Sequence record: CP121101.1 | Source: a plasmid | DNA length: 64,000 nt | Reading direction: 5' to 3' (one strand) | Part shown: piece after piece, positions 11,438 to 47,296 of the stretch | How the letters are laid out: every line of letters starts with the position of its first letter | Position numbering within the stretch: the stretch's first letter is position 1 | Program-made: the position numbers and the translations under genes | The notes under the pieces: generated by a model | Database searches by the model: none | Seen by the model: only the letters and a program-made list of their open reading frames with translations | Told to the model about the DNA's origin: nothing

Positions 11438-11453
11438 ATTAACATCCGGTTCC

Positions 11454-13305: not shown

Positions 13306-13309
13306 GGCT

Positions 13310-14821: not shown

Positions 14822-14823
14822 GA

Positions 14824-16290: not shown

Positions 16291-16434
16291 AGACGCCACC
16301 GTATAGAAAATCCTAGGGGGCGTTATACCGCACTCAAGCGGAAATAATTGCACAGCTAAAATGGGGGGGGTTTTCTGAACGGTCTCGAGATAGGAGGAAA
16401 AAAAACCCGCCAATTACTTAGGCGGGTTCTGGGT

Positions 16435-19709: not shown

Positions 19710-21762
19710 GCACCGGCCTGTTAGTGCTCCAAGCATCCCACGGGGGCCTTGTTCCACTTGTAATACCGGCACCACCCAGCCGGTACTGGCCAACTTGAGC
19801 GCCGAGCTCGCAGCAGCCCGGGGCCACCTGATGCACAGACCCGCCGGACCCAGTACCGGCACAACCCCGCCGGCAGTGGCCAACCTTGGCGACGAGCTCG
19901 CAGCAGCCCGGGGCCACCTGCAGCACTGACCCACCGGACGCAGTACCGGATCCACAGCCAACCTAGACGCCGGGACCGCGGAGGCCCGCAGCCACCTACG
20001 GCACCGGCAACACCGGACACTGCGCCAGATCCCCCCGCCAGCTGTCGCCACCCTGGCACCGAGAGCTCGGCGGCCCAACTGGCGCAGCACCTGATCACCC
20101 TGCCGGCACTGGCCACCTTGGGCGTCGAGCTCGCAGCGACCCGGGACCACCTGCAGCACAGACCCAACAGACGCAGTAACGGATCCCCCGCCGGCAATGG
20201 CCAACCTGGGCGACGAGCTCGCAGCAGCCCAGGGCCACCTGCAGCACTAACCCACCGGACGCAGTACAGGATCCCCCGCTGGCAATGGCCAACCTGGGCA
20301 CCGAGACTTCGGCGGCCCGCAGGACGCTGCACCGGCCTCCCACCCGGTCGACGGCTACTTTGGGTGACGATCTCGCAGTAGCCCAGTACCACCTGTTACT
20401 CCTTCCCACCGGGCGAAACACCGAATCACACGCCGGCTGTGGTCACCCTGGTCGTCGGACTCCCAGCGGCCCAGGGCCACCTGCTACTCCTTCCCACTAG
20501 GCGAAGCGCGCCGGGTCACCCCGCCACCGCTGGGTAACCTCTGCCCGAAACCGCAGCGACCCGAGGCCACCGGCAGCACAGACCCGCCGGACCCAGTACC
20601 GGCACCACCCCACCGGCAGTGACCAACCTGAGCGCTGAGACCGCGGCGTCCAGGGGCCACTTGCTGCACCGGCAACACGGGGCGCACAGACCCGCCGGAT
20701 GCAGTTCCGGATCACCCGCCGGCTGTGGCCCCCTGGGTGCCGGCTCGCAACTGCCCGGGGCCACCGGCTACACCGACCCAACTGGCGCAGCACCTGATCA
20801 CCCAGCCGGCAGTGGCCACCCAGGGCGTTGAGCTCGCAGTGGCCTGAGGCCACCGGAAGCACAGACCCGCCGGATGCATTACCTGATACACCCCGCCGGC
20901 GGGACCGCGGAGGCCCGCAGCCACCTGGTGCACCGACCCCCACCCGGTCGATGGCCACCCTGGGCGCCGGCTCGCAACTGCCCGGGGCCACCGGCTACAC
21001 CGACGACCAACAACTGGTGCAGTACCTGATCACCCCGCCAGCAGTGGCCACCCAGGGCGCCGGCTCGCAGCTGTACGGAGCTACCTGCAGCACCGACCCA
21101 CCGGACGCAGTGCCGGATCCACCCCGCCGGCGTTGGCCACCCTCGGCGCCAGGACCGCGGAGGTCCGCAGCCACCTACGGCACCGGCAACACCGGACACT
21201 GTGCCAGATCCCACCGCCAGCAGTGGCCAACCAGGGCGACGAGCTTGCATCTGTACGGAGCTACCTGCAGCACCGACCCACCGGACGCAGTACCGGATCC
21301 ACCCTGCCAGCAGTGGCCACCCTCGGCGCCGGGACCGCGGTGGCCCGCAGCCACCTGCAGCACCGACCCACCGGACGCAGTACCGGATCCACCCTGCCAG
21401 CAGTGGCCACCCTCGGCGCCGGGACCGCGGTGGCCCGCAGCCACCTACGGCACCGGCAACACCGGACACAGCGCCAGATCCCACCGCCTGCAGTGGCCAA
21501 CCTGGGCGACGACAAGCTCGCAGCAGCCCGGGGCCACCTGCTGCACCGGCAACACCGGACACTGCGCCAGATCCCACCGCCAGCAGTGGCCACCCAGGGC
21601 GTGGAGCACGCAGCGGCCCGGGGCCACCTGCAGCACAGACCCACCGGACGCAGTACCGGATCCACCCCGCCAACAGTGGCTACCCTCGGCGCCGGGACCG
21701 CGGAGGCCCGCAGCCACCTATGGCACCGGCAGCACAGACCCGCCGGGCGCAGTAACGGATAA
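19710..21762 (+). repeat. high-GC (about 70%) degenerate tandem repeat array, period about 90 bp, about 22 copies
   Basis: The unit CCGCCGGCAGTGGCCAMCCTGGGCG..GCAGC(C)CGGGGCCACCTGCAGCACCGACCCACCGGACGCAGTACCGGATCCACC is repeated with two alternating half-variants. The youngest copies (21.2-21.5 kb) are near-identical. Confidence 0.85.
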
Positions 21763-21798
21763 TAAAAATCCGCCTCAAGGGGCGGATTAGGTTTTTCC
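21763..21798. terminator. bidirectional rho-independent terminator
   Basis: AATCCGCC-TCAAGG-GGCGGATT hairpin, flanked by AATAAAAA upstream and AGGTTTTT downstream. Confidence 0.7.
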
Positions 21799-22076
21799 AA
21801 TTTCAATAAGTGGTGATCAGCGCGGTGCCCGGCAGCATCTTGACGCAGTTGGTGACGATAGGGCGTTGAGGTTCAATGGCCTTACCTGCCTCCTGCATTG
21901 ACTCACCAGCCTGCTGCAAGGCCTACAACAGTCGTCGATAAGCCTACGTAAGGGCAAGGCAAATACTGTTATCCATTCGGTCGGCAAAGCGTTCTGCCGG
22001 GTTTCTGCACTCGGCCAAGACGCCAGTACAACGGAGCCAAGCGCCATTTGCTTGATCTTCATTGGTGTTTTTTCTC

Positions 22077-23800: not shown

Positions 23801-24179
23801 TCAGCTTGCTTTCGCGTAAGGAGCCGGTGGTCTCCCCTTTCACGTATCTTCGACATTGCCGGTTCTTTGTAAAGATGCACACTCTACTTGTGCCGGCATT
23901 GTGTGGTTTTCACACAATGGCCATCAGTTTCTCAGTGCTAATTCTCCCACTGGTTTTACCAATGCAAGGCGGCCGCCCCTTCAACACAGGTATTCAGGCC
24001 GCCGACTCGCCGGACGCTGTGGACTTGATCTCTCAACCAGCTCGGCACAGGTCCGGGGCGATCCAGCCCTACCACACCGGCAGCGTAAACGCTGAACATC
24101 GATTAGCTCGGTGGTCCATTGCCACCTGCAGCCACTGGATGCTAATCCATATCACTGGTTGAGGTCGTTCTTAGCTCCG

Positions 24180-25150
24180 TGCACCAGATCAATGACACCA
24201 GAGCTGGCCGCTCTGGAGGCGCAGTAAGCACCATCGGATAAAGGTTCCCGAACTCTACATTCACCCCGGCAAGGGCCCTCAGGTCACCAGCCGTGTCGAC
24301 CCCAAATATCAAGCCGGTCGGCAGCTCGCTTCCACCTACAGTGCTAGCAGCGCCGAACTATACACCTGACCTCCGGAACCAGCCCTAACCACTCTGAACC
24401 TACGTACCAGCTCAGTGGTACCGGCGTGCCCCCTTGGATGCTGAGCTCACAGCGGCCCAAGGCATGTCAGATCCCTCCCCTCCTCTCGGCCGAAGCGAGC
24501 TAAACCGAGCCCTGGGTCCCGAGATCGGCATGCACACCGACAAAAGCCCACAACCATCCCCAGGCCCCTCCGCTCACCGGCACCGGTGCAGGTCTCCCAG
24601 GACGCCGAATCCACTGTGGCCAGGGGTCCGTAACATCTGGTCCTTCAAGGGTACTGGGTCCAGAACTCGGCAAGCACACCAACTAGATCCCGCCACCACC
24701 ATTGCAGGCCCCACTAAACACCTGCACCGACCCAGGATCCGTTGAACACTTCGCACAAGCTCACTGGTGCCCCCTTCCCTGAAATCAACCAGTAGGCATC
24801 CCACACCAGGTCACCAGCCCCGACGCTAGCCGCTCAGGGGGTGCCTTGAAAGACGCCGTAGCACAGAGGCCCGAATTCAGCATGCACACAGACAAAAGCC
24901 TGGGCCTAGCACACGAGTGAGATCTTCCGGGCCACTTGCTGTACCGCGAGCACATTGATAGTGCAGGCCAACACCAATCAGAACTGGGGGCTAATCAGGC
25001 GTGTGTTCAGGAGGCTGTGACTGGCGGGCTCGCCAGTGAATACCTGCAACTTGCTGACGGAATGGATTTGCCCGTCAGTGCGCTCATGGCGCCAGTTGCA
25101 TTGCGAAGATCTGGGGGATGATCGAAGTAAGCAAAAAAATCGTCTACGGG
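24180..25150 (+). repeat. degenerate copies of the same high-GC repeat family (about 355-bp higher-order period)
   Basis: The landmark GCATGCACACCGACAAAAGCC occurs at about 24524 and 24879, with the surrounding text matching the 43.9-44.8 kb region. Confidence 0.6.
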
Positions 25151-25158
25151 TGCTATAA

Positions 25159-28100
25159 ATGTCCTTTTTGAACGCAACGGCTTTCCTTGATTACTTGTTC
25201 TGCCCTCCCCTTTCAGGGCACAAAACAACCGTCATCGCAAAAACGGTGTCCCAAAAAATCAGGTGCAATATTGAAGCGATCAAAATTGTAAAGCGCTGCT
25301 TGGCTGATGGCTCGCTGGCTGTATCTGACGTCGAGCGTGATGTCCTTACTCAGTATACCGGATGGGGTCAACTATCAGGACTCTTTGAGCCAGAACACCC
25401 CCAGCATGCCGAATTGAAATCGCTAGTCACTCAAGCAGAATTCGCTGCGTTGGAAGCATCTGTATTGACCTCCTATTACACCTCCGAATGGATTATTGAT
25501 GCCATGTATCGTGCCGTGGCACGCCTGGGTGTGCAGGAAGGTCTATTACTCGATTTCGCTACAGGCTCAGGTAAATTTTTGGCGGGGCGCCCAGCGACTC
25601 TTTCAGCGATGAAATCCTTTGCTGTTGAGTTGGATGGCCTGACAGGGACTATCGCCCGCCTGCTGAACCCTGCAGCCAAGATCTATGTCAATCAGCCGTT
25701 CGAGCAAGTAAAGCTCCCGAATAGTGGCGACTTTTCCCTAGTTATTGGAAACCCGCCATACTGCTCTGTTCCTGCCAGGGATAGAGCATTTGGCACTCTT
25801 CCACTACATGCCTACTTTCTGATTAGGGGGTTGAGCGAACTGCACCACGGCGGGCTAATGGCTGTTGTCGTATCAAGCTGGGTAATGGACTCGAAAGATA
25901 ACGATGCGCGGCTATCTCTCTCGGCCAGGGGAAATTTGGTTGCAGCCTGTCGTCTGCCGAATTCGGTGTTCAAGGGTGAAGGAGCCAACGTTGTTACCGA
26001 TATTCTGGTCTTTCAAGCCTGCCAGCACCCGGAAGAAAACCCTTCATGGATCGACACCGTAGAGGTCAACGACGAAGCAGGCTCGGCATATCGTGTGAAT
26101 CGCTTGTTTGTGGATCGTCCTGAACTCGTCGCCGGCAAAATCTCAGCTCCTAGCACCTTCAATGTGTCTTGCAACGTTGCAGACCCTGGCCGTGATCTTG
26201 CGAGTGTTGTAACTGAAATCCTCGATATCCAGACTTCCAACCCCTTATTTTACCGTAAGTCTACGGTTCCAGTTGCAAGGAAAGGCGTCATTTCTGCCCC
26301 CGCTGGTATGAGCGATGTTGGGCCATATGAGTTTTGCCAAACTCCGGCGGGCGAGTTGATGCGTCGAGTGGCAGATCATGTTGATGAAAACGGGGCTAAG
26401 GTGCCCACGTTCCAACAGTGCGAGTTTAAATCAGCCAAGGATAGGCTGCGTATATCGGCCATGCTGAGAGTTAAGAGGGTCTTGGCATCACTCATCAACG
26501 CAGAGCAAAGCAATGCGCCAGACACCAGCTTGCGAGCTATTAGGGCTGATCTTAATGCAACCTATGACCGCTTTACTGCCGACTTCGGTCCGTTCCACGC
26601 CTCAAAAAACAAATCTGTACTTGGGGAAGATCCGTGGTATTACCGCTTACGTGCTCTCGAGCTGGACTACATCGCACCGATCAGTACCACGGTTGCCGAA
26701 AAGGAGGGCATCGCAGAGCGTAAAGAGCAATGGAGTAAGGGGGATCTGTTCACCCGCCGCGCAATCACTCCGTTGATCACTCCCAGCTATGCCGCGAACC
26801 TTGCCGACGCCGTGCTAATTTCCGTGAGCTACAAGGGTGAGGTCGATCTTTCATACGTTCGGGATCTGGTCGGCTTTAAAGGGACAGACCAAGAACTTTT
26901 GCATCAGTTGGCCGAACAATCTCTGGCATTTGCCGAACCAGATAGTGGCAACCTGGTCATTGCTGCAAAGTACCTTTCAGGTTACATCCCCAGCAAGATT
27001 GAGGCTGCACAAGGAGCGGCCGAATCCGACCCTCTGTTTGCTATCAATGTTGCCAAACTGCAGCGAGTCATGCCCTCCCCCATCAAGGCGGTAGACATTT
27101 TTGCACCGATGAACTCCCGTTGGCTGCCTAACCATTTCCACGCCGATTTTATCCGCCATCTGGTCGATCAGCCCAAATTGAATGCACAAGTTACCCTTAT
27201 CGACAACGAGTATCATGTTTCGCATGGCTCTCTTCCTCAAACCGTCTTAACCTCTGAATGGGGTACGCAGCGCCGCGATATGACCACCTTGCTCATTGCG
27301 CTTTTGAACAATCGCGCGATTGAGGTACGCGATCCACATCCGAGCATATCTAATACGACTGTTCCGAACCCGGACGAAACAATGGCCGCCCAACACAAAG
27401 CAGAGGAAATTAAGGCGGCCTGGGAGTCGTGGGTGCTGGATGATTCCGAACGCCGCAACGAAATTGAGCTTGCTTATAACGCACATTTCAACGGCTTTGT
27501 TGCCCCAAATATAATGGCTCACGCCTGCCTTTAACTGGTAGTGCAGTAGACCTATATCACACACAGAGAAACGCCATTGCTCGGGTCATTCATGAGTCGT
27601 GCACTTTGATCGATCACGCTGTCGGCGCCGGAAAAACGTTCACAATGATTGGCGCGGCAAGCGAACTAAGACGCATTAATAAATATGAGCGTGTAGTGCT
27701 GGTCGCGCCTAATCATCTTGTTGCTCAGCATGCCACCGCTGCACAATTTATTTTCCCTGGCATGAACATCTTTGTGCTCGATAAAACGATGATGACCCCG
27801 GCCACACGCCGCACAGCCTTAGCCCGCCTTGCAATGACAGACTTCGATCTATGCATCATCCCGCTGAGTGTGTTCGGGCTAATCCCAGCCCCTCACGATC
27901 TCTTAGTCGAAATGTTGGAAGCAGAGATTGATGATCTTCACCGGTGTTTGTCGGAGCTGAAAAATGAGCGGTTATCTGTACGCCGGATGCAGACGCGGAT
28001 CCAGCGCAAAGAAGCAGAACTCGAAGAACTGGTGAACAAACGCACTGATGAAATGCTCGACTTTGCTGACCTAAGGATCACAACTCTAATCATTGATGAG

Positions 28101-30164
28101 AGCCAATTCGGTAAGAACCTAAGTTATTCTTCATCCCTGCAAAGCGTTGCCGGCATGGGCCAGGCATCAGGCAGTAAGCGTGCCTTTGATCTATTTATCA
28201 AAAGCCGTGCTGTTCTGCGTGCCGGTGGGCGATATGTTGAGGCTACCGGAACACCAATCCTCAACTCCGTTGTGGAAGCACATCGACATCTGCGAGTGAT
28301 GGCCGAAGATTTTACTCAGTCAGCAAAGCTGACCCACTTTGACGCATTCAGTGCAGTTTTCGCCCAGCCAGTGACAGATTATGAATTGGCGGCGTCCGGG
28401 CGCGGCTACAAGATGAGAACTCGAATTAGTACATTCACAAATTTGACAGAGCTTCAAGCTATCTACTCAAGCTTCGCTGATGTAGTTACTTCTGAGCAGT
28501 TGCCTAATGTCTTGCCAAAACTAGCTGATGGCCGCAGTGCTATACCTCCCCTCACAGGGGGCAAGATCATCGAGCTGGTGATTGAACCCAATGAGCACCA
28601 GGAAAACGGCTTCGCCGAAATCGTCAGTGCATATTCTCGAGTCGATAACCGGGAGAACAACCCCCTTAAACTGCTCAACCGGGGGCGAATGCTCTCTCTC
28701 GATGCTCGGCTTGTGTACCCAGACGCACCGGACTACCAGGACAGCAAAATTAATACCGTAGTGCGCTACCTGCTCGAAAAATATCAAACGACAACTAGCG
28801 TTCGCGGTACTCAGATGGTCTTCATGGATCGCAGCATTCCCGCTCGCCATCGTGCCGGAGCTTCGAAAGAGTGGGCGGCAATATTCAACCTTGCTAGGCA
28901 GGGCGATGAAGAAGCGTTAGAGCGTATTGAAGGCCTAGACGAACTCGAACTTACCGCCATGGTCTGCAGTTCATTCAGCCTCTACGATGAGCTGGTAGAA
29001 AAATTGGTTGAGGGTGGCGTCCCCCGCAACGAGATCGCAGTGATCCACGATTACCGGACGGACACCAGAAAGGAAGCGTTGCGTGACATGATGAATGAGG
29101 GGCAGATCCGAATTTTGCTTGGCTCTACTGAACTGGCAGGCTCTGGGCTCAATATCAACCGGCGTTTGGTTTCGTTGGTTCACTTCGATCTCCCATATCG
29201 GCCCGGTGATTTGGCGCAACGAGCTGGCCGCATTGAGCGCCAAGGCAATCTGTTATGGGCGAATGACCCCGAGTTCACCATTGATATTGTTGTGCCAATC
29301 ACCCGTCGCTGTCTTGATGCTTGGCAACTGGGTTTGCTCAACACCAAGCAGCGCTTTATCAGCCGTTTCCGTCAACTCGATAGCTCAGTCCGGCACTACA
29401 CAGAGCAAAATGAAGCGATTGATTATGCCGAGTTAAGCGCCATCGTAGCCGATGACCCGCGAATCCTGGCTCATGTCAAAGGCAAAGCAAAGCTGCGAAA
29501 GCTTGAGGCAGCCCGGAATAACTGGTTCCGGAATCGCGTCAGATTGGACGACCAGGCACAATCCCTTGAGCAAAGAAGCGCAACCTTGGCGACCAAAATA
29601 CAGATGATTCGAGCCGATGCAGCTAACATTGCGGCCACGGCGGATGAGTTGTTGATCACTGTGGATGGTGTGACATATGAAAAAATGGGGGTGGATTCGA
29701 CGGCTACAGATCGTCTAAACATAACCGCCGCCGCCCCGGCTGTCGGTTCAAAATATGGCAGACTGAACTACCGTGCAGATATTGGCAGTCAACACGACAT
29801 GGCTACTTACCGGGGGGCTACTCTGGTCTATGAAAAGCCGTATTTCGCCAAGTTGTGCTTCGCCACCGAGTTCACAGTTCGCGGCCCCTCTGGTCATCAC
29901 TACGAGCTGAGAAATTTAGAGCGCAATAGCATTAACGCTGTGATGGCCGCCTTTGTCGTGCTCGTCGATACCTTGCCGCGCTTACCAAACATAGCCACGG
30001 CCCAAATGGCTACTTGGACAAAGAACGCTACCGACTATCGCACTGAGGCAGCGAAGCCATTCAGCGCCCAAGCAGAGCTTGATGAACTGATCCCATTTTT
30101 GCGGCAACTTGAAAAGGAATTGGCAGATTCAGCCACACATTCAGTAAATCAAATGGCCGCTTGA
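25159..30164 (+). pseudogene. giant fused N6-adenine DNA methyltransferase / SNF2-like SF2 helicase (about 1660 aa) with an apparent frameshift near 27500
   Basis: MTase motif I DFATGSGKF and motif IV GNPPY lie in 25159..27534. Helicase motif I GAGKT, motif II DESQ and motif VI QRAGRIERQGN lie in 27606..30164. The helicase frame is open back to 27483 and encodes the Q-motif-like LYHTQRNAIARV, so the two ORFs were once contiguous. Confidence 0.75.
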
Positions 30165-30322
30165 GGAATGATGTACCCCCCCACCTGCTGACAGGGGGGT
30201 TGTTCATTGACGAAAGATATTCGTCTGCTATTTGATAGCCCCAACTAATGATTATTGGTTTGCCCTCCCTTGCATTGACCGATGCCGTGGGATCATAACC
30301 CCATTGAAACCAGAATGGGGTT

Positions 30323-32083
30323 ATGAACATGAACGCATTGAAACAAGGCGCCTCCAACCACACGGATGATTCTTTGGTGATGCTCACTGTTGATCAGGTA
30401 GTCGCAGCCCCCTGGGGCAACGTCCGTCGCGGCAGCCGCAACAATACCAAGTGGACGGATTTTCTCGCTGATGTAAGGCTGCGCGGGATCATCCAATCGG
30501 TGACGGTTCGCCCCCATCCAGAAGTGGCAGGTGTTTTCGAGCTGTTAGCAGGATATGGCCGTTGGGATGCCGCCAAAATTGTGGGTTGCCCGCTCCCCGC
30601 CCTTGTCGTCAATTGCAGTGACTCAGAAGGCGTTGCTATTGGCATGATGGAGAACCTGCAGCGGGAAGACATGGGGCCGGTTGATGAAGCCCACGCAGCA
30701 CAAACGGCACTAGCTCTATGCAATGGTGATTACGAAGAAGCCCGTAAGCAACTCGGTTGGTCGCTGGGTCGCCTCAAACAGCGCCTGCATCTTACTCGCT
30801 GCACTCCGGCAGTGCTTGATGCAATCTCAGCCAAATTGGTTTCACTTCGCCATGCCGATTTGCTCGCAGGTATCAGTGCTGAGGCGCAGAACGCTCTGTT
30901 GCCCTCAATTACTGAGAAAAGCCTTAGCGTGGATGCGCTCAAAGCCTTGCTTGGTAAAGCCTCGGCACCGATTTCCTCTGCGCGTTTTGATGTAGGAGAT
31001 TGCGCCTCCTGCATTCACAACAGCCAGCAACAATCCAGCCTGTTTAATGAGTTCGCTGTTGTTGACGGGGCTGTTTGCCGGAATCTTGTGTGCTTTAAAC
31101 AAAAAACTGCAGCTATGGTTGCGGCCCGCAAGGGCGAACTCGCCGAGCGTTACGGCACCATCATTGTTCTATCCGAAGTGTCCCAAGGTTCGATTAACCA
31201 TGTAAGCCATGACACCGTTGGCGCAGAGCAGATGTTTGATGGCTGTTTACCTTGCTCGAAGCGTGTTGCATTGCTCGATGACCGCATTGATACCGCAGGT
31301 GATGTGCTCGAAGATCGTTGTACCGACCCAGATTGCTTCAAAACGTGTGTTGCGAAGCACTGTGATGCAGTGGCGGAAGCTGCAGAAATCACTGAACAGG
31401 CGAACTGGGCGGCGGGGATTGATCCCGCTCTCACCAATACAGCCCAACCCTTGCAATTGGATGACGGGAATAAGCAGGCTCCCAATGTGCCCAAAAGAAA
31501 GGCTGCCGATAGTGATCCCGCTACCTCTTTGAGTAGTTCGGTGGTTGCAGACCACAAGATAATGCTAAGACGCGCAGCCGTTGAGGCGTGGGGAAGCGAC
31601 GCAGAGGCTTCACAGCGTTTCCAACTATCAGTTGTTTTGTCGAGCCTTTTGTCCGTTGCTGGCAAAGCAACCTTTGGACGCGCCCTGCCGGATACCATTG
31701 CTGATAGCAGCAAAAGTATTGAGGCGTTGCGAAGCGAGATCGCCAGTACCATGAGCTTTATCGTCGAGCGTTTGGACGGCACCGGCTACTGCCCGATGGT
31801 GGACGTTATGATGGCCACTCTCCCCCACGCTCCTAACGCTAAGGAGAAGGCTATAGCCCAATGGGTTCCCACACCCGAGCGACTGAAAAGTTACACGACA
31901 GATACAATCACCTTCATCTTGAAGGAGTCCGGCTTCTTGACTGCCTATGAGGCTGCCCACGATGCCAAGGCACTGAAAAAGCTTATCGGTATGAACAAAG
32001 GCGATCTTATCAAGACAGTTGGCTCCTTTGAGTTCAGTTGGTCAGGCTACGCCCCCAGTTTTTACTTTAAGGGGTTTGAATAG
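30323..32083 (+). CDS. ParB-like nuclease-domain protein (ICE/PRTRC-associated ParB)
   Basis: ParB/Srx N-terminal domain with LLAGYGRWDAA; large 586-aa ICE-type ParB. Confidence 0.65.
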   Translation: MNMNALKQGASNHTDDSLVMLTVDQVVAAPWGNVRRGSRNNTKWTDFLADVRLRGIIQSVTVRPHPEVAGVFELLAGYGRWDAAKIVGCPLPALVVNCSDSEGVAIGMMENLQREDMGPVDEAHAAQTALALCNGDYEEARKQLGWSLGRLKQRLHLTRCTPAVLDAISAKLVSLRHADLLAGISAEAQNALLPSITEKSLSVDALKALLGKASAPISSARFDVGDCASCIHNSQQQSSLFNEFAVVDGAVCRNLVCFKQKTAAMVAARKGELAERYGTIIVLSEVSQGSINHVSHDTVGAEQMFDGCLPCSKRVALLDDRIDTAGDVLEDRCTDPDCFKTCVAKHCDAVAEAAEITEQANWAAGIDPALTNTAQPLQLDDGNKQAPNVPKRKAADSDPATSLSSSVVADHKIMLRRAAVEAWGSDAEASQRFQLSVVLSSLLSVAGKATFGRALPDTIADSSKSIEALRSEIASTMSFIVERLDGTGYCPMVDVMMATLPHAPNAKEKAIAQWVPTPERLKSYTTDTITFILKESGFLTAYEAAHDAKALKKLIGMNKGDLIKTVGSFEFSWSGYAPSFYFKGFE

Positions 32084-32342
32084 TCCCTCTCCCCTCCCCC
32101 GCTTAGTAGGCGGGGGAACACCCCTTTATGATCCCCTATGCTTATTCCACTATATGTCCTGTTCCTGGTAGCCCTCTAGCGGGGTTGTAATCTGCTAGGA
32201 TTCGCAAGGGTGACAATATGCTCAGTTCATCCGGTCCGGTACAATTGTAGGTTTTGTTTTCTTCCCTTACTCCAATCCATCAGAGTATTTCTGCAAGGTG
32301 ACCTACCTGATGGGCACTTGCATTATCAAGTAACAGCGTAAG

Positions 32343-33527
32343 TTGACTCCACGCACCAAGGAGACAACCGTTATGATGGAATTTACCTTTAAATCCAGTT
32401 CATCTTTTACCGACGCAATCACCTTCGTTGCAGCTCATGCAAAAGGGAGCATTGCACCGATTCATAAATACCTTCTACTGCAAATAGCAGAGAACGGCGT
32501 TCTGTCAGTTCAAGCCACGAATGGTGGTTTCTTTGCTACCCGCATGACGAAAATGGATTCGTTCAGCGGCACGGGCTCTATCTGCGTTGATGCGGCAAAA
32601 TTCAATGCCATCGTTCACTCGATGCCCGTTGATGCAACCGCAACTGTCAAGTTTTCCTCTGACGGCAATAAATTATCAGGCGTTGTTCAAGCAGGGCGTA
32701 GCCGATTCCAGTTAGTGTGCTTATCAGCAGACGAGTTCCCTCAGCCAGAGATTTGTAATAACACCTCTCGCTTTTCCATCCAAAGTAGCGATCTGCTTCC
32801 CACCCTGACCCGTCTAAACCGTATGGCTCCGGCTAATGATTGCCGCCCAACGCTCAATTCCATTTGCGTTGAGCTGGACGATACGAGGGCCGTAGTTGTG
32901 GCATCTGATGGATTGCGGCTGGCTAAAGGGGAGTTCCCTATCAGCAGTATTAGCGGTGATGTGCGGGGGCATCAGTTGTTGATCCCTAAACAACAAGTGC
33001 AGCAAAAATTTTCAATGACAAAGATGGGGTGTGAGCTGGTAGTTCTCTTTGATGCTTCACGCCTTGCCATCATCTGTCCGGTACATGGTTGGAAACTACA
33101 ATTCAGCCTGCTGGAAGGAAAGTACCCCAACTGGCAGCGTGTTATCCCGAATCCCTCTGGTCATGGCTGGGCTGACCTAGGGGTAGATCGGGAATATTTC
33201 ATTTCATGCCTTGAGAGAGCCAAGATTTTGGCTGATGGTCGCAAACAAACTGTGCGTTTCCAAGTCCAAGCTGGGGAGATCACTATCAGCTCGAAGAACG
33301 AAGGGAGCGACGAGGGGGCGACCGAGATCGTCCCCTGTAAGATGCCGTTAGGCTTAGAGAGGGTATCGGCCATCTTCAATGTTGGTTATCTCGTCGATGC
33401 TCTGCGCGGATTGTCCGGCGCAATAGTCAATCTGACCATCGATACCTCGGAGCAGAATAGTGCGGTTCTCATGCGTTCTGAAACTGACATTACTGCATTG
33501 CAGGTGTTGGCCCAAGTTAAGGCTTGA
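32343..33527 (+). CDS. DNA polymerase III beta sliding-clamp (DnaN) homolog; likely start MEFTFK at about 32376
   Basis: Clamp-like N-terminal region, and GRSRFQLVCLSADEFPQ, VVASDGLRLA (cf. DGHRLA); three-domain length. Confidence 0.7.
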   Translation: MTPRTKETTVMMEFTFKSSSSFTDAITFVAAHAKGSIAPIHKYLLLQIAENGVLSVQATNGGFFATRMTKMDSFSGTGSICVDAAKFNAIVHSMPVDATATVKFSSDGNKLSGVVQAGRSRFQLVCLSADEFPQPEICNNTSRFSIQSSDLLPTLTRLNRMAPANDCRPTLNSICVELDDTRAVVVASDGLRLAKGEFPISSISGDVRGHQLLIPKQQVQQKFSMTKMGCELVVLFDASRLAIICPVHGWKLQFSLLEGKYPNWQRVIPNPSGHGWADLGVDREYFISCLERAKILADGRKQTVRFQVQAGEITISSKNEGSDEGATEIVPCKMPLGLERVSAIFNVGYLVDALRGLSGAIVNLTIDTSEQNSAVLMRSETDITALQVLAQVKA

Positions 33528-33652
33528 TGTTATCTGACAGCTTGCTTTTGTCGTTCTATTGGGGGGCAAACTAATCGCTATGCCCCCTTGCATCATCCGG
33601 TATCGGGTTAACCTAAGTCCACTGAATAAAGAAACAGACCGGAGAAATTTCC

Positions 33653-34000
33653 ATGTTCCAGCCCCTGATTGAATGCCTTTCCACTCGCCTCGGGGTGAGT
33701 CAATTCAACCTTCAAGTGTCCGGCTCGGCAGAGTTAACACAGGTGATCATCATCCCCGTCCTCTCGGCTCCTGCGGCCAATGTTGCGGGGGCAGGCTATC
33801 AGGAGAGGGGGCAAGCCTACCGTGCTGCCCTGACAACTCCGGTTGTCGTTTCCGCACCTCTAGGTGACATTGATACTCGCTTAGCTGAGATCCTTGACGA
33901 GTACGCTCAAGGTCTCTCTGATACATTACGCCAGCCCAGCATCACTGAGCAATTGCAGAAGGCTGTATCTCAAGCGGCGGTCAAGGGTGTTGAGTGTTGA
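33653..34000 (+). CDS. hypothetical protein (PRTRC neighbourhood)
   Basis: ORF only. Confidence 0.35.
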   Translation: MFQPLIECLSTRLGVSQFNLQVSGSAELTQVIIIPVLSAPAANVAGAGYQERGQAYRAALTTPVVVSAPLGDIDTRLAEILDEYAQGLSDTLRQPSITEQLQKAVSQAAVKGVEC

Positions 34001-34054
34001 GCCGAGAAGAAAAAGGGGGAAGCCACACATCCAGTGACTGATGGAGCTATTCCA

Positions 34055-34105
34055 ACAGGGGCAGGGGCAGGGGCAGGGGCAGGGGCAGGGGCAGGGGCAG
34101 GGGCA
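34055..34105 (+). repeat. (CAGGGG)8 hexanucleotide microsatellite
   Basis: Eight perfect CAGGGG units, 85 nt upstream of the PRTRC ubiquitin-like gene. Confidence 0.9.
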
Positions 34106-34188
34106 GGGGCAGTTCAGGAGAAAGTTGATGCCCAAGCACTTTTTGACCAAGACATTTTGTCCTCTTTGGGAATCTAAGGGGAGTCCAT

Positions 34189-34404
34189 ATGCAAACCATC
34201 AACTTACTGCGTCGAACCTTTAAAATTGGCTCTGCTATCGTAGATGACCCTGTTCCTGGCCTGCCACTCGAAACGGCACAACAAATCCTATCAGCCACCT
34301 ACCCACAGGTACGTTGGACAACCTTGTACGAGACCGATGGCCTTCTGGTAGGGAATACCTTGCAATACGAATTTCTAATACCCCCAGTCAAAACCAACGG
34401 TTAG
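34189..34404 (+). CDS. PRTRC system protein C (ubiquitin-like beta-grasp)
   Basis: 71 aa ending ...KTNG. Located beside ParB and the ThiF/E1-like gene. Confidence 0.5.
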   Translation: MQTINLLRRTFKIGSAIVDDPVPGLPLETAQQILSATYPQVRWTTLYETDGLLVGNTLQYEFLIPPVKTNG

Positions 34405-34807
34405 ATGTTGGGAGGGGAGGGGATCGAAAACCGCCGCAAGGCGGTTTTATCTTTTGTGTGTGTGGATTCAGCCGCCAGCTATCAGTCCTAGGGGAGGTTT
34501 GAGACCCAGTACTGCTGATGGGGTGATGTTGTCGGTGAACAGGCAGCAGAAAAATACAGTGTATTTGTGTTTCCAACTTGTTATCGGCAGCGCAAGGGAG
34601 CAACAAAAATACACTGTATTTTTGGGAGTTTGAGCTGATCTTGCGTCTGAGCAATCTAAGGGATACTGGCTGCATAGGAGGTGCTTACATGCCGACTCAT
34701 GATGAATTAGCCGCATGGCTGGATGTAATTGAGGCTGAGCCAGAACAGCCAACAGAGCAAGTTTCAGATCAAAACTACCTAGAAGAATTTGCCAAGGAGA
34801 AAGTGAA

Positions 34808-35512
34808 ATGGATGCAGTTTGCTCAGAGAGTAGCGCGAGCACCAACCGAGCGGGATTTGCAATCCGGTTGGGCGAGCCGGCCTCGCTGAAAGGGCAGGCT
34901 AGCGCGCGTTTGCAAGTACCCCCCTCCTTGCGTCTGCGCGGGGCTGTAATACCAAGACCGGGGTTTGCGGCTACAGATGGTTTCCATTCATCAATTCATT
35001 CTCTGGGGGAAATTGCACCACTGTTGAAGCCTGTCGTCACGCTGGCTCACAAGAACGGCTGGGGGGCCACAGAACTGACCAATTTGATGGCAGCGCAGAC
35101 TCTAGCTGAGCGCCTGAGTCGCTTTGAGGATCTTGCGCATGTTGTATGCCAAGAGCTGTCTGAGCGGGCTGAAAGGGCAGGGGAGGTATGTGCCTGCGAA
35201 CTGCGGGAGATCCTAAAAAATGTGGGTGGGGAAGCGTTGGCCACAGAGTTTGACAATAACTACGCAACTTGTAGGCAGATACTTGATTTTAGTTTTGGCC
35301 TTGTTAACGACCGAAATGGTAATGAGTTCGGTCAGGCCAGCGAGCAGTTCAGATTTAGGCTGTTCTCTGACCTCGAATTCATGGTTTTTCCATCGTCAGT
35401 GTCCAGCGACTACCTCGCAGCATTTCAAAACCTCATGTTCTCACAACTCCCACTTGTTGGGTTCATCCCAAGTAATGCCTTCTTTGAATACACCCTCGAG
35501 GATGATGACTGA
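34808..35512 (+). CDS. PRTRC-associated hypothetical protein (start uncertain, possibly ATG at 35087)
   Basis: Its stop overlaps the next start as ATGACTGA. Confidence 0.35.
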   Translation: MDAVCSESSASTNRAGFAIRLGEPASLKGQASARLQVPPSLRLRGAVIPRPGFAATDGFHSSIHSLGEIAPLLKPVVTLAHKNGWGATELTNLMAAQTLAERLSRFEDLAHVVCQELSERAERAGEVCACELREILKNVGGEALATEFDNNYATCRQILDFSFGLVNDRNGNEFGQASEQFRFRLFSDLEFMVFPSSVSSDYLAAFQNLMFSQLPLVGFIPSNAFFEYTLEDDD

Positions 35513-36242
35513 GTGTTACGATCTTGAGTTACCAGAGACTTTGGAGGCCAGCCAAATTGACGAGTTCATCGGCGTTTTGGAGCAGGCCGAAAGTGAATTA
35601 TCCAAGATAGACTCTGCTCCCAGCATCGAATCAGAAGCCCCCGACTTTTTCGATAAACTCGTGCTGCTAGTCGGTGGCAAAGCAGAGGCAACTGCTGTTC
35701 TTATGAAGGTCAAAGATGCCAGTGATGAACTCGGTGGTGATGGATACTCAGCCATGTGGAGCTGTTTTGATTATTGCCATCAGAAAGCTGGCTGGACTGA
35801 AATCGCTCAGTCAGTGAAGGAGATCACAGCTGAAGGGGGGCTTGCGGCTGTATTTGGCCGCCTGAGTGAGGTGGATGATAACACCTCTCTGAGTGCCTTC
35901 CTGTTGGGGGCTCAGACGATCATTGAAAGGGAAATGGCGACCAATAGGGTAGCGAAAGAGGTTTTCGACTATCAAGACGAGTCTGACATATCCATTGACT
36001 TTAAAATCCCCTTTGAAACAAAGGTGCTGTCGCGCAGGGAGCTTGCTGATGATGCCTACAACACTCACAACGAATTTGCCATGAACGGGGATCTTTGTAC
36101 CTCTAGCGTTTGCGTCCACATCAATGATGATACTTTGATGGCCATGGAATCGTGGCAGCGAAGCATTGCAATTATGGCCGCTGTGTACGTCGCAGGAAAC
36201 AACATGAAAGAGGAAACAGGTCATGCAAGTGGTCAGAAATAA
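35502..36242 (+). CDS. PRTRC-associated hypothetical protein
   Basis: The ATG at 35502/35505 is translationally coupled to the previous gene. Confidence 0.4.
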   Translation: MMTECYDLELPETLEASQIDEFIGVLEQAESELSKIDSAPSIESEAPDFFDKLVLLVGGKAEATAVLMKVKDASDELGGDGYSAMWSCFDYCHQKAGWTEIAQSVKEITAEGGLAAVFGRLSEVDDNTSLSAFLLGAQTIIEREMATNRVAKEVFDYQDESDISIDFKIPFETKVLSRRELADDAYNTHNEFAMNGDLCTSSVCVHINDDTLMAMESWQRSIAIMAAVYVAGNNMKEETGHASGQK

Positions 36243-36969
36243 CGCCTGTCAGAATAAACAGAGTCTACCCCGCCTTGCGCTCGTATTTTCCAGCTCTAGT
36301 GAGCAGATGGCAGACCTGACCGGCATTACACGACACGCCATCGTTGACGACAAACTTGGGCTAGGTGAACCCCTTTCAATGCAGACGATTCAGGATCTGT
36401 TGGCAGACCTCACAGGGTCGCTGGATCGCTCCCAGGGTAACACGAAGGGCAACTACCAATTCATCCCCTCAAACGTGCTGCTCAGTAGCCCAAGCGCCAT
36501 TACATGGTATCAGCCCTCGCGGGAAGGAATGTTATGGTTACAGGTAGGTGGTGAGAGGTGCGGTTTCCAGATCCGTTGGCCAGCACTTGTGTTCAATATC
36601 CAGAAAGGGTCGGCACGGCTATCTGTAGCCGCTCTGGAAACCGATGAGCGCCCTACACCCGAGAACCATGTCTACGATGTTCCGATGCCCAACTGCTACC
36701 ACGGGGGAGGGTTTTGCCTTGGGAGTGCAACGTTGCCCCGAGAAATTAATTTCTCGACCTTGCCGGAGATTGAGGCTTGCATGTACGAGGCGCTGAAAAC
36801 ACACAGTAACAACTCCCAAGCGTTAGCCGACGGCTCTACGCCAACCGCGTTTTGGGTCGGAATGGACGTAGAGCGGAGAAAGACCGGCGTAATCCCGACA
36901 ATAACAGCCTCCCAAATGACGAGAATTGGCTATCTCGGAGATTGGATTGAGCAGGTTGCATCACGATAA
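36223..36969 (+). CDS. PRTRC-associated hypothetical protein
   Basis: Overlaps the upstream gene by 20 nt. Confidence 0.4.
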   Translation: MQVVRNNACQNKQSLPRLALVFSSSSEQMADLTGITRHAIVDDKLGLGEPLSMQTIQDLLADLTGSLDRSQGNTKGNYQFIPSNVLLSSPSAITWYQPSREGMLWLQVGGERCGFQIRWPALVFNIQKGSARLSVAALETDERPTPENHVYDVPMPNCYHGGGFCLGSATLPREINFSTLPEIEACMYEALKTHSNNSQALADGSTPTAFWVGMDVERRKTGVIPTITASQMTRIGYLGDWIEQVASR

Positions 36970-37015
36970 AGAAGGGGATAATTGCGAACGTTGAGTTGAG
37001 TAAAGGAGCAGGGCG

Positions 37016-37764
37016 ATGAAGTGGAAAACCCCCATTGAGTATTTGTCTCAGGAAGTGGATGTTGTGCTTATTGGGTGTGGAGGGACTGGCAGTTTTGTCA
37101 TGGGCGAACTGTCAATGTTACATGATCTCTTGGCCCGTCTTGGTCATCCCGGCATCAGTGTGACCGCCTATGATGGCTCTCCGGTTCGTGAAGCTAATTT
37201 AGGTCGCCAGAGGTTCCATGCGGCAGACCTGGGGCTCCCCAAAGCACAAGCCTTGGTCGATGCGGAGCGTTGCTATAACGGATTCGCTTGGGAAGCTAAG
37301 GCAGACTATGATGTGGGCCAAGGACACTTTAATCGCCGCCGTCCAACCGTATATATCACCGCTGTGGACAAGCCCAGTTTTCGTGCGCAATTCGGGTCGA
37401 AGTTTGCAACGTTGAGCAAAGGAAACGGCCTCTGGATTGACGCAGGCAACGATAACAAGACGGGGCAGGTAGTCTTAGGGGGGGCGGGATTGCCGCAGCC
37501 TATGACCTGTTTGCGGGGCAGTATGAGGTGATGGTGGATGACCTATCCAAGAGCTGTTCATCAGCGGAGGCCGTCGCCAAGCAAGATTTCGGGGTTAACT
37601 CTACGGCAGCCAGGATTGTTGGCCAACTCATGTGGAATATGTTCCGGCATGGCGGCCTTGATTCCCACGGTGCGTTTTTCGACGTACACCGGTTATCAGT
37701 TGACCCCATACCCATTGACGAAAAAGTGTGGTCATCGTTCGGTTACTCTCCGAAGACTCAGTGA
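37016..37764 (+). pseudogene. ThiF/E1-like PRTRC system protein B, frameshifted near 37480-37530 (G7 run)
   Basis: Rossmann fold VVLIGCGGTGSFV and E1 motif NLGRQRF lie in 37016..37531. The C-terminal part continues in 37528..37764. Confidence 0.65.
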
Positions 37765-37880
37765 GTGCCATGAACGCAACCCTAAATAAAAACCGCCCGA
37801 TGGCGGTTTTTATTTACTGGCAGGTTGGTGGAATCCTATTGATGCTGTTGCTCCCATGCCCAGCCCTCCCTGCTTGATCC

Positions 37881-38880
37881 TCACTTTTTGAGCATAGCAA
37901 GGAGATCGAACAGTTGCTGACTGGAAATCTCGTCTGGTAGGGTCAACTCGAAAGTATTGCCCTTTTTTTGCTTCACCTCGATTCCGGCAATCACATTCAC
38001 ATTGGTGCGCTTTTTCGGCTTTTCACCCGCAAGTTCTGTTGCTTGTGCGGCAATGTCGGCCAGTGCTTTCGGTGCTGAGGGGTATGGCTCTTTACCTTGG
38101 GCCCATAATATCAGGGCTTCAACTTGTCCCTTCGTGAGTAGCTTTAGGGTTCTTCGCAGATTTAGTATTGTTGGGCGCCCAGTACCAGTTCCATCCGGTA
38201 GCAGTTCATAGAGTGGCAGCGGGATCTCAAGTGCCCACTGTGAGGCGCGGACTTCTGACTCATGCACCCCGAAAAGTGCTGCGGCCTGGAGTACATCTAA
38301 CCCTTCATCCTTCATCACCCGGGCATAATGCAGCCCTTTATCATAAAGCGAGTTGGGTCGAGTGAGGTTGGCAAGTCGACTGAGCTCGCGTAGCTCTGCC
38401 ATGCTCAGATCCTCTGTTTCGTCGGTGTAAGCTATGGGTAAGCCTTTATCCGCCAACAGTGCACAGTATCGGCGACGCTGACCGTCAAATATCCATATAC
38501 CTGGTATCTGCTCCTCGTACTGCCAACACCTCCATCACGACGCCACCAGACCGAACTGAGCCGATCAGGTCATCTACAGTTTCTTCAGTCACTCCCGACT
38601 TGGAGCGAATATTCGCTTCGTGGATATAGGTTAGCTCCTCAACATGTGCGGAGGGGATATAGACTGACGTCAGCCGCACGAGGCGCCCATTTTTAAGGCG
38701 TATAACCCGGAAAGCACCAGTCGATCGAATCTTGCTGGCCAATGCTTCTTCCGCGTCCAGAAATCCCCCAGCCACATCCTCAGGTATGCTGAACACACCG
38801 CTTGAAATGGACGGCTCGGCTGCTGATGCAGCCATGTGGGCCACTAGGCCTGTGCTCATTGGCGTGCGCTTTTTGCTCAT
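37881..38880 (-). pseudogene. parB: ParB partition protein, frameshifted near 38500
   Basis: The N-terminal ORF is 38485..38880. The C-terminal ORF 37881..38456 is preceded in-frame by the ParB box FDGQRRRYCALLA. Confidence 0.65.
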
Positions 38881-38913
38881 CAGTTCGATACCTCAAGAAT
38901 GTTAGAGAAAAAC

Positions 38914-39964
38914 TCAGCCACAACGTTCTCCGCAACGTTCTGGGCACGTCGGAGTGACCGGGTATCTCCTGCATAATGCTTCGGTTGGATGGATGGTGAA
39001 TACGGTTCGGCCATCTTCAGTGACAGAAGAGAATGGCCTCAGTTGCTCCATCCTGTTGACAAACAACTTCGCTGGTTCAAGGTTCTTGAGCATCATGTAG
39101 TTATCCAGATGCTGTGGATTGGTGCCGTCAAATTTACTGCCCAGAAGCCAGACTGATGCGGGATCCAGGTTTGGGGAGGGGATATTCGCCAACAACCCAT
39201 GAATGGACTCGAGGAATTTCAAGCTCGAGTCAAACTCCAGCGGGTCGAGGCCAATAGCAACAAACAAGCTGTCACTCGCTTGCAAAGTGTTAATCAAGGC
39301 CGCGTCAAGATGAGGACCCGCATCAAGCAAGATGAGATCGAAGTGATCACGAATCGGATCAATGACATATTTTGTCAGCAATTCGGTCATGTTGATGCCG
39401 GTATCTGCAGCGTGTTGGTATGCCTGCAGTGAAAAGAAACCATCAGCTGTACCCGCCGGCATGACGAATAGCCCATCGCTAGAAAGTAGGCAGCATCCAT
39501 GACCTTACCGTTTCAGGTGTGGCTCTGCTGGCAATGGCTTCGATTGCAGAATGCTGTGGCACTTTTCCAAGCCCGGCGAACCCAAAAGCAACGGAAGTTG
39601 ACCCCTGGGGATCCATGTCAATAACCGCTACCCGCAATTGATGACGGATCAGGTTGCGATGATGAACCAAACCGGTCGCGATGGTAACGGTCGATGTGGT
39701 CTTGCCAACCCCCCCCTTTAGGTTCTGGCAAGCTACCACCTTAGCGCGAGTATCGGAGCCAAGAGTGGACTTGATCTCGGCAAACGAACGCTGGCCTGCG
39801 GCCTTGTAAATGGCCCGCACATCGGCATGAGAAAATGTGTGTGGTTGGAGCGCGTTTTTCTCTGCTGGTAGCCGGCTAAACTCTCGGCCACCATCACGCA
39901 ACACCTTGATGGCCCCTTCAACTCTGGCCCGGGTCATTTCCGGTAAACGCTGCACCTGGTACAT
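38914..39964 (-). pseudogene. parA: ParA/Soj partition ATPase, frameshifted near 39470
   Basis: Deviant Walker A KGGVGKTTSTV and DMDPQGS lie in 39479..39964. The C-terminal half lies in 38914..39462 in another frame. Confidence 0.7.
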
Positions 39965-47171: not shown

Positions 47172-47296
47172 GTATCACAAACGTTGGTTTGAGGCGGCGC
47201 TTCGGCCACGATTGCATTGACCTCTGGAAATGTATCTCAACCAGCTTCATAAACAAAGCGTCTTGAACGCTATCAGATTTTGAAAAAGGAACATGT

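Follow-up and report, generated by a model that had tools for sequence, protein, structure and literature searches.

A diverged DnaN-family sliding clamp encoded within a PRTRC ubiquitin-like cassette of Aeromonas plasmids

The subject of this analysis is a 64,000-nucleotide stretch of plasmid DNA (sequence record CP121101.1; hereafter the window), and in particular a gene at positions 32373..33527 of its plus strand that encodes a 384-amino-acid, DnaN-family paralogue of the beta sliding clamp. The gene lies inside a ParB-related ThiF-related cassette (PRTRC; described as operon type 6d by Iyer, Burroughs & Aravind 2006, PMC1779556), in a slot between the genes for the PRTRC ParB and for a PRTRC_E-like protein, and upstream of genes for a ubiquitin-like protein (Ubl), an E2-like protein and a ThiF-family E1. 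The reading favoured here, tentatively and with a little under half of our confidence, is that the clamp is a dedicated component of this variant of PRTRC, a homodimeric ring that would be loaded on plasmid DNA and would either hold ParB, E1, E2 and Ubl there or be their target.

The open reading frame (ORF), as delimited mechanically, runs from 32343 to 33527 on the plus strand, opens with a TTG codon and holds the motifs GRSRFQLVCLSADEFPQ and ASDGLRLA. The true start of the gene is likely to be the ATG at 32373, which has an AAGGAG ribosome-binding site 8 nucleotides upstream and gives a product of 384 amino acids, the length of the RefSeq coding sequence on the related plasmid pAER-f909. 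RefSeq already labels that gene 'DNA polymerase III subunit beta', and the gene call itself is thus known. All three Pfam domains of the clamp family are matched above their gathering cut-offs (PF00712 with 48.3 bits, PF02767 with 34.2 bits and PF02768 with 44.2 bits). TIGR00663, the NCBIfam dnaN equivalog, aligns with the protein from end to end (E 1.8e-36) and scores 125.9 bits, below the cut-off of 137.65, so the protein is classed as a DnaN-family paralogue and not as an equivalog of the replicative clamp.

A phmmer search of PDB sequences with the clamp returned 54 clamp sequences, the best being the Stenotrophomonas DnaN 7RZM (E 8.5e-28). The AlphaFold2 model, for which the input alignment held 34 sequences, has a mean predicted local distance difference test score (pLDDT) of 90.5 and a predicted template modelling score (pTM) of 0.84, with six helices and the expected pattern of beta-sheets. 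When this model was compared with the PDB by Foldseek, the top matches were bacterial beta clamps only, including those of E. coli, Pseudomonas and Stenotrophomonas, with E 1e-33, template modelling (TM) scores of 0.89-0.93, a root-mean-square deviation of about 2 A and 24% identity. A preliminary description of this DNA, made from the sequence alone, had proposed a full-length, three-domain clamp homologue with a ring fold on a mobile element. The three Pfam domains, the model and its TM scores bear out the first part of that proposal, and the presence of the gene on pAER-f909 and its relatives the second.

Between 25000 and 38000 the window is 99.7% identical, over its full length, to pAER-f909, a circular plasmid of Aeromonas sp. 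ASNIH4. Another 12 Aeromonas plasmids, all closed circles of 161-244 kb with a MOBH relaxase and rep_cluster_1332, match this segment at about 93% identity. The clamp ORF is unbroken in the window and in all 13 relatives, with two substitutions only relative to pAER-f909. When the genes were compared with their 93%-identical copies on pK524-KPC, the ratio of non-synonymous to synonymous substitution (dN/dS) was 0.15 for the clamp, 0.14 for ParB and 0.10 for E2. Given the domain matches, the fold, the position and this dN/dS ratio, the clamp is a real clamp-fold gene under purifying selection and not a chance ORF. The preliminary description had also raised the possibility of a simple chromosomal dnaN fragment, which is ruled out by the full length of the gene, by the 24% identity of its product to E. 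coli DnaN and by its setting in a plasmid operon. The dnaA-dnaN-recF context, of the chromosomal type seen at comparison loci L013 and L014, is absent here, the flanking genes being PRTRC ParB and PRTRC_E. The protein is therefore best described as a highly diverged but genuine beta sliding clamp, a specialised paralogue rather than the replicative clamp. Its predicted isoelectric point is 7.0, as against 5.25 for E. coli beta.

It might be supposed instead that the clamp is a decaying or non-functional hitchhiker on a plasmid with a broken PRTRC cassette, a supposition that we hold to be very improbable. Its appeal comes from the window itself, where comparison with pAER-f909 over 24007-39500 reveals indels at 24007, 24507, 27507, 33995-34005, 34503, 35501, 37496 and 38496, all of 1-2 bp apart from one 7-bp duplication. 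These break the genes for the helicase upstream of ParB (27507), PRTRC_E (33995-34005), the protein in the position of PRTRC_F (35501), ThiF (37496) and the partition ParB (38496), and ParA is also split into two ORFs. Because the damage extends to the partition genes, which are essential, and because an intact relative has 99.7% nucleotide identity, the indels probably represent sequencing or assembly error in an unpolished assembly rather than decay. Moreover, the clamp itself is intact in the window and in the 13 plasmids, has the low dN/dS ratio given above, and is conserved in relatives down to 32-38% identity, all of which speak against a hitchhiker.

The residues of the clamp were mapped by alignment onto E. 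coli beta numbering. Nine positions that we take to make up the dimer interface of the E. coli clamp (F106, L108, I272, L273, R103, R105, E300, E304 and K74) are all retained, and from this we infer that the protein still forms a head-to-tail homodimeric ring. For the cleft and the DNA contacts, residue roles are presumed to be those of the E. coli clamp, whose hydrophobic cleft, with the C-terminal MPMRL as a part of it, binds motifs of the QL[SD]LF type. The scaffold of the cleft is kept (R152, L155, G174, R176, L177, P242, R246, V247, N320, Y323 and V360). Across the clade, however, H175 is replaced by L, M, K or I, Y153/Y154 are lost, M362 is replaced by A, S, G or T, M364 is also replaced, and L366 has become A. 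In the Aeromonas branch P363 has become Q, and the C-terminal MPMRL reads AQVKA. Further peculiarities are an insertion of four residues ahead of GRSRF, and Trp and Cys residues that are specific to the clade. The pattern is suggestive of a cleft whose scaffold has been kept while its specificity residues have changed. The preliminary description had called for confirmation of a ring fold and a hydrophobic cleft; the fold is confirmed by AlphaFold2 and Foldseek, and the cleft only as regards its scaffold. The substituted C-terminal positions matter, since E. coli beta that is shortened by its five C-terminal residues can no longer be loaded or support replication by Pol III (PMC3022782).

The state of the cleft bears on the idea of a decoy or spare clamp, one that protects host and plasmid from clamp-targeting toxins, antibiotics or competing elements, or that sequesters host clamp-binding proteins. 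Second copies of DnaN do act as resistance determinants, as in the case of mypR/griR (PMC10817943), a changed cleft is what would be expected of an inhibitor-insensitive variant, and the conserved interface could in principle permit heterodimers with host beta. A decoy, however, should keep the canonical cleft, and this clamp does not; the same remodelling weakens the earlier proposal that the protein titrates host clamp-binding proteins. A spare clamp, in turn, must bind the host clamp loader and polymerase, and the substitutions make such binding doubtful. No biosynthetic cluster or toxin gene adjoins the clamp, there are no non-ribosomal peptide synthetase (NRPS) or other biosynthetic genes in its neighbourhood, and it has no match among the PADLOC defence models. 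Strict membership of an operon with E1, E2 and Ubl would also be left unexplained, and we regard a decoy or spare function as improbable.

The position of the gene is defined by its upstream neighbour. The 586-amino-acid ParB encoded at 30323..32083 (plus strand) carries the Pfam domains ParB_N and HTH_ParB and scores 299.4 bits against TIGR03734, above the cut-off of 278.6. It is thus the ParB of PRTRC, and the clamp therefore lies inside the cassette. Previously the clamp had been placed between ParB and the PRTRC cassette; the neighbours named, ParB and the E1, E2 and Ubl genes, are the right ones, and it is the location outside the cassette that does not hold. In intact relatives the gene order is methyltransferase-helicase, ParB, clamp, PRTRC_E, Ubl, F-position protein, E2 and E1, followed by convergent parB/parA genes.

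Proteins closely resembling the clamp are rare. In a word-indexed search across 5.8 billion proteins, nine close relatives stood out at 41-94% identity, and beyond a gap came ordinary DnaNs at 30% identity or less. Similarly, an exhaustive phmmer search of 1.84 billion cluster representatives gave 14,729 DnaN-family matches, among which four clusters reached E<=1e-30 (P0001, P0006, P0050 at 38% and P0051 at 32% identity), the remainder having no more than about 30% identity. The arrangement around these genes is strictly kept. Aeromonas plasmids have the order ParB-clamp-E-Ubl, and the same order, with a small variable ORF between ParB and the clamp, is found in L001/L002 (P0006, 42% identity), L003-L005 (P0003, 57%) and L015 (P0050, 38%). 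On the 1.7-kb contig L016 (P0051, 32%), a PRTRC_E-like N-terminus directly follows the clamp. Every lineage of the clade for which flanking DNA is available thus has the same clamp arrangement, down to 32-38% identity, and the slot is conserved across a divergence like that which separates the DnaNs of distant bacterial classes. Whether a DnaN is conserved beside PRTRC in other elements, a check suggested in the preliminary description, can accordingly be answered in the affirmative, for all lineages of this clade and for three other plasmid families that are considered below.

The interval between ParB and the clamp is itself variable. In the Aeromonas plasmids it is non-coding and 290 bp long, and a GC-rich hairpin closely follows the ParB stop codon (about 32098-32117); a promoter and terminator scan of the spacer gave nothing above shuffled expectation. 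The small ORFs that occupy the interval in more distant relatives encode 136-181 amino acids (L001 9452-9970, L003 7994-8404 and L015 2701-3138); one weakly matches a nuclease of the calcium-activated kind, and the N-terminus of one resembles a signal peptide.

The other genes of the cassette identify it as a gamma-proteobacterial plasmid variant of PRTRC, for which the NCBIfam families TIGR03734-03742 were used, a set that includes no clamp. Downstream of the clamp, the PRTRC_E-like protein (33653..34177, plus strand) matches TIGR03741 weakly (E 7.7e-6 and 2.3e-6; 27.5 bits, cut-off 38), and in the window it is cut at 34000 by a 7-bp duplication at 33995-34001 together with a 1-bp deletion at 34005. 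The Ubl (PRTRC_C/Prok_Ub-like; 34189..34404, plus strand) has 71 amino acids and ends in KTNG; matches to TIGR03738 (19.9 bits, cut-off 46) and PF14454 are weak, and its C-terminal Gly is conserved in all orthologues. The E2-like protein (Prok-E2_D/PRTRC_B; 36223..36969, plus strand) is intact in the window and scores 74.7 bits against PF14460 (cut-off 25) and 89 bits against TIGR03737, below the cut-off of 131. It has an invariant Cys and a downstream Thr-His, and the E2 of operon type 6d is described as having a Cys and a downstream His (PMC1779556). In the case of the ThiF-family E1 (PRTRC_ThiF; 37016..37764, plus strand), the intact pK524-KPC copy scores 171.3 bits against TIGR03736 (cut-off 144.75), whereas the window copy scores 122.4 bits because of the frameshift at 37496. 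The invariant residues of the E1 are GxGxxG, R64, Q65, D118 and C181. Judged by these residues, E1, E2 and Ubl look catalytically competent. For B, C and E, gene order and protein size agree with PRTRC, as do the catalytic Cys and His and the C-terminal Gly.

Two further genes of the cassette are less readily assigned. The protein encoded at 34808..36242 (plus strand; 457-481 amino acids) is in the same position as PRTRC_F of Burkholderia, and in the window it is frameshifted at 35501, giving ORFs at 34808-35512 and 35220-36242. It has no family match, and BLASTP found no similarity to PRTRC_F of Burkholderia or to the equivalent protein of IncP-2 plasmids, so that homology to PRTRC_F is not demonstrated. 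At the head of the cassette, 25159..30164 (plus strand) encodes a fusion of an N6-adenine methyltransferase and an SF2 helicase (Pfam N6_Mtase/Eco57I and ResIII/Helicase_C). In relatives this is a single protein of 1668-1681 amino acids, always directly upstream of PRTRC ParB and unbroken in L006, L001 and L003; in the window a 1-bp deletion at 27507 leaves two ORFs in its place, 25159-27534 and 27606-30164. Searches for PRTRC A (the JAB peptidase), D and F gave no match at E<0.1, and there is no gene between E2 and ThiF, the site of A in Burkholderia. A known anti-phage defence system was considered and ruled out on the PADLOC result: ParB, E, Ubl, the F-position protein and E2, like the clamp, match no model, and E1 and the helicase give weak generic matches only, in the latter case to the helicases of the DrmD/BrxH models. 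Directly downstream and outside the cassette, the convergent genes at 37881..39964 (minus strand) encode a plasmid partition ParB (ParB N-terminal domain protein) and ParA; they are annotated in L006 and L007, and in the window AAA_31/CbiA/ParA matches fall on two half-ORFs.

For a wider view of the association, PRTRC loci were drawn from two sources, PLSDB and a scan with a ThiF profile over one genome per species (13 loci), and were searched with a DnaN hidden Markov model. The ORF directly after ThiF on pIFO15640 (NZ_AP025146.1), a plasmid of Vibrio penaeicida, bears the annotation 'hypothetical protein' (L012 11478-12602) and proved to be a very divergent DnaN-like clamp (hmmsearch E 9e-30) with about 17% identity to other clamps. 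This in-operon clamp independently has the replacements H175 to L and P363 to Q. The IncP-2-type Pseudomonas plasmids (L008, L027 and L028) have a dnaN in the same orientation as ThiF and 3.6-4 kb downstream of it, and in the Shewanella plasmid pKC-Na-R1 a dnaN adjoined by RecT lies 3.4 kb upstream of PRTRC ParB. No clamp was found within 10 kb of the PRTRC loci of Alteromonas, Salinimonas, several Pseudomonas, Lamprocystis, Vreelandella, Azomonas and Burkholderia. Among the 72,556 PLSDB records, 265 have a clamp-like sequence and 333 have PRTRC_B, both being concentrated in four genera, with respective counts of 126 and 141 for Pseudomonas, 14 and 13 for Aeromonas, 11 and 19 for Vibrio, and 8 and 8 for Shewanella. 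The association of clamp and PRTRC is therefore real in at least four plasmid lineages, and it is not obligatory. A common origin of all PRTRC-linked clamps was also considered; a neighbour-joining tree recovers the in-cassette clade and leaves the Vibrio, Shewanella and IncP-2 clamps as long unplaced branches.

The neighbourhoods of these cassettes share other features as well. Genes of the PAPS-reductase family lie a few kb from PRTRC in Alteromonas (L009 15407-16420) and Pseudomonas (L010 15194-16312), and likewise on a metagenomic contig (L001 17242-18354) and on pAER-f909 (L032 45746-48316), in places together with a Ref nuclease, RecT, a 3'-5' exonuclease or a Tus-like protein. This suggests that PRTRC cassettes in unrelated plasmids sit in a common DNA-metabolism neighbourhood.

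The main rival to the favoured reading is a generic auxiliary replication clamp, one that boosts or host-proofs plasmid DNA synthesis and owes its position beside PRTRC to the clustering of DNA-metabolism genes in the plasmid backbone. The synthesis concerned could be vegetative replication, the replacement of the conjugative donor strand, or the making of the complementary strand once the plasmid has entered a new host. Plasmid-borne dnaN genes occur in several large plasmid families (the 265 PLSDB records above), often amid genes of DNA metabolism, for instance RecT in Shewanella, and Tus, SSB, toprim, lambda exonuclease and umuDC genes on pAER-f909. In addition, the ring-interface residues and the cleft scaffold of the window clamp are conserved, and a canonical cleft (H175, M362 and P363) is retained by the clamps that lie near PRTRC in IncP-2 and Shewanella. 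Nevertheless, an exact slot within an operon has been retained to 32-38% identity while the flanking cargo varies, and residues that bind the loader and polymerase in E. coli (H175 and MPMRL) have been replaced, which argues against smooth use of the clamp by the Pol III and clamp loader of the host. Genes for a clamp loader or a replicative polymerase are absent from the plasmid. A role as helper of a plasmid-encoded Pol V was entertained on account of the umuDC genes of pAER-f909 (L033 30613-32312), where Pol V has the canonical clamp-binding motif QGDLF at residue 360. In at least five sister plasmids umuC is cut to residues 105-426, and in most it is truncated or missing; umuC is thus an accessory and not a conserved client of the clamp, and this role was rejected as a conserved one. 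A general replication clamp is a possibility that we take seriously but consider doubtful.

Under the reading that we favour, that of a dedicated PRTRC component, the ring would be loaded onto plasmid DNA, presumably by the clamp loader of the host at primed junctions. Once loaded, it would serve as a dedicated, DNA-bound docking platform, and possibly as a substrate, for the ParB, E1, E2 and Ubl of PRTRC, and not as a general clamp of the replisome. In favour of this reading are the clamp fold, the purifying selection, the rarity of the clade, its strict synteny, the recurrence of clamps with PRTRC elsewhere, the remodelled cleft, the conserved tip of PRTRC_E and the apparent competence of E1, E2 and Ubl. 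The best candidate for a ligand of the cleft would be the C-terminal tip of PRTRC_E. This protein consists of a globular N-terminal domain of about 90 amino acids, a linker that is acidic or of low complexity, and, at the C-terminus, a short hydrophobic tip. The tip, DD[IV]LxSLG[LI]-COOH (e.g. SMFDDDVLKSLGL), is conserved in all four in-cassette lineages. In the AlphaFold2 model of PRTRC_E, which is poor overall (pLDDT 53.3; 6 homologues), residues 106-156 are disordered, and there is a short terminal helix; a Foldseek search with this low-confidence model gave no match below E 0.2. We take the tip to resemble the acidic tail of SSB and the C-terminal hexapeptides that bind clamps, such as QLVLGL, and the linker and tip may represent an architecture typical of tethered interaction peptides of the clamp- or SSB-binding type. 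As a separate observation, the SSB of pAER-f909 (L032 39582-40166) is without the usual acidic C-terminal tip and ends in GSRRP; in the same plasmid family, PRTRC_E ends in the SSB-tip-like FD(Q/D)D(I/V)LxSLG(I/L).

Several points weigh against this reading. Any link between the clamp and PRTRC, whether physical or functional, would be one drawn from synteny alone, and the proximity seen in IncP-2 and Shewanella could be a matter of backbone organisation, as large plasmids cluster their replication and maintenance genes. About half of the PRTRC loci scanned, the canonical Burkholderia locus included, have no clamp within 10 kb, from which it follows that PRTRC does not need a dedicated clamp. 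R24 and Q149, which correspond to DNA-contact positions in E. coli, are not conserved in the clamp. The search for partners was also largely negative: no strict clamp-binding motif is conserved across the orthologues of ParB, the F-position protein, E2 or E1, and the only conserved match to the motif expression among the neighbours, QLGLL, lies within the helicase and is doubtful in its meaning. Other PRTRC_E tips differ from that of the in-cassette lineages (NLDLAASF, FANLAERF and, in Vibrio, QQVQMF). Of these, the one from Vibrio resembles a canonical motif for clamp binding, yet the cleft of the Vibrio clamp is non-canonical, and simple co-variation of tip and cleft fails as a proposition on this pairing. 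PRTRC itself, moreover, is without a known function (PMC1779556).

A more specific proposal is that the clamp is the DNA-bound hub, and possibly a lysine-modified substrate, of the E1/E2/Ubl cascade, making it the plasmid counterpart of the ubiquitylation and SUMOylation of PCNA. If so, PRTRC would mark or remodel proteins on replicating or newly transferred plasmid DNA, and the E tip would dock in the remodelled cleft or, in clamp-less PRTRC, onto the DnaN of the host. We consider this proposal unlikely. That the clamp works in some way with the neighbouring E1- and ubiquitin-like proteins had already been suggested in the preliminary description, and of the three functions proposed there, the others being the titration of host clamp-binding proteins and a putative support of rolling-circle replication, it is the one that fits synteny best.

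The preliminary description had further called the clamp ICE-encoded, that is, carried by an integrating conjugative element. This label is not supported as it stands, as the nearest relatives are the 13 circular plasmids, and neither an integrase nor an att site lies beside the cassette within the 64-kb window, which shows no sign of integration. The element appears to be a conjugative-type plasmid with a transfer apparatus of the ICE family (MPF_G). In the left part of the window, which is about 89% identical to the same plasmid family, proteins matching TIGR03746 and TIGR03749, both named for the 'integrating conjugative element', are encoded at 372-1959; these MPF_G genes probably explain the first label. 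They adjoin a type IVB pilus cluster (within 372-16413) that includes a PilN-type secretin (13310-14821), prepilins, a T2SSE ATPase split between 9918-10487 and 10487-11437, and, in the same region, a trypsin-like protease (4084-5103). Besides the SSB, umuDC and PAPS-reductase genes already mentioned, the last of which encodes a large protein, pAER-f909 also has TraI (MOBH), TraD, more MPF_G genes, a toprim protein, a Tus-like protein, a lambda-type exonuclease and a tyrosine recombinase, the latter away from the cassette.

The right part of the window is a mosaic common to thousands of resistance plasmids (Tn3/TnAs1, an strB fragment, an MCP gene and TniQ). A truncated, strB-like aminoglycoside 6-phosphotransferase of 187 amino acids (45435-45998) adjoins a resolvase and a Tn3-family transposase (46557-49924), and downstream of the transposase lie the MCP gene (50072-50947) and the TniQ gene (53840-55333). 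The segment 45435-55333 is thus a typical resistance-transposon mosaic. Elsewhere in the window, 20001-22000 forms a sharp GC-rich island (GC content 0.69, the surroundings having about 0.47-0.52), in which long ORFs overlap on both strands; the largest of them (20828-21790) has no Pfam match.

PRTRC has been catalogued since 2006-2008 as a widespread cassette of plasmids and ICEs that encodes E1, E2, Ubl and ParB, and the literature search found no experimentally established function for it. Nor was a paper found that links PRTRC or Prok-E2_D operons with a sliding clamp, although mention in other work of the Aravind laboratory is not excluded. The presence of a clamp within a ubiquitin-like cassette suggests that PRTRC works on DNA. 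Together with the clamps that three further plasmid families carry within or close to PRTRC, it is the first concrete pointer found to such a site of action, which would be the DNA sites at which clamps are loaded. The carriers are large multidrug-resistance and carbapenemase plasmids of Aeromonas (e.g. pK524-KPC) and, in looser association, IncP-2 Pseudomonas megaplasmids, so a role in plasmid maintenance or establishment would be of practical interest. Even if the protein were only a replication accessory, it would still be a clean case of a DnaN paralogue that has become specialised and whose partner cleft has been rewired.

Compared with known systems, the clamp resembles bacterial DnaN (E. 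coli 2POL/1MMI) in its three-domain fold, length class, interface residues and cleft scaffold, and differs in its low sequence identity (24%), its score below the equivalog cut-off, the lack of a dnaA-dnaN-recF setting, the changed cleft, the loss of R24 and Q149, and the 4-residue insertion. The cassette, for its part, resembles canonical PRTRC in having ParB and ThiF proteins above cut-off, the Cys and His of E2, the Gly of Ubl, a PRTRC_E-like protein, the same order of genes and a location on plasmids or other mobile elements. The canonical order, as in Burkholderia pBcp895-1, is an SNF2 helicase followed further on by ParB-E-C-F-B-A-ThiF, with no clamp, so that a clamp is no part of canonical PRTRC. 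Whereas canonical PRTRC has the JAB peptidase A and a recognisable F, the Aeromonas variant has no A, an unrecognisable protein in the F position, and the clamp between ParB and E.

The dnaN genes of other plasmids (IncP-2, Shewanella and Vibrio) are likewise extra clamp genes on large gamma-proteobacterial plasmids, 0-4 kb from PRTRC. Their products, however, share only 15-25% identity with the window clamp and among themselves, their positions differ, and in IncP-2 and Shewanella the cleft is canonical. In eukaryotes, PCNA is modified by ubiquitin and SUMO through Rad6-Rad18 and Ubc9. The likeness to the window would lie, by analogy, in the coupling of a sliding clamp to an E1/E2/Ubl cascade, a coupling read here from gene order; the window clamp is of the DnaN type, no E3 has been identified, and modification of the clamp is in this case hypothetical. 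The self-resistance proteins GriR and MypR of actinobacteria are likewise each a second, diverged DnaN that serves a special purpose (PMC10817943). GriR and MypR sit in NRPS clusters that make clamp inhibitors (PMC10817943), whereas the clamp of the window sits in a Ubl-conjugation operon on a plasmid.

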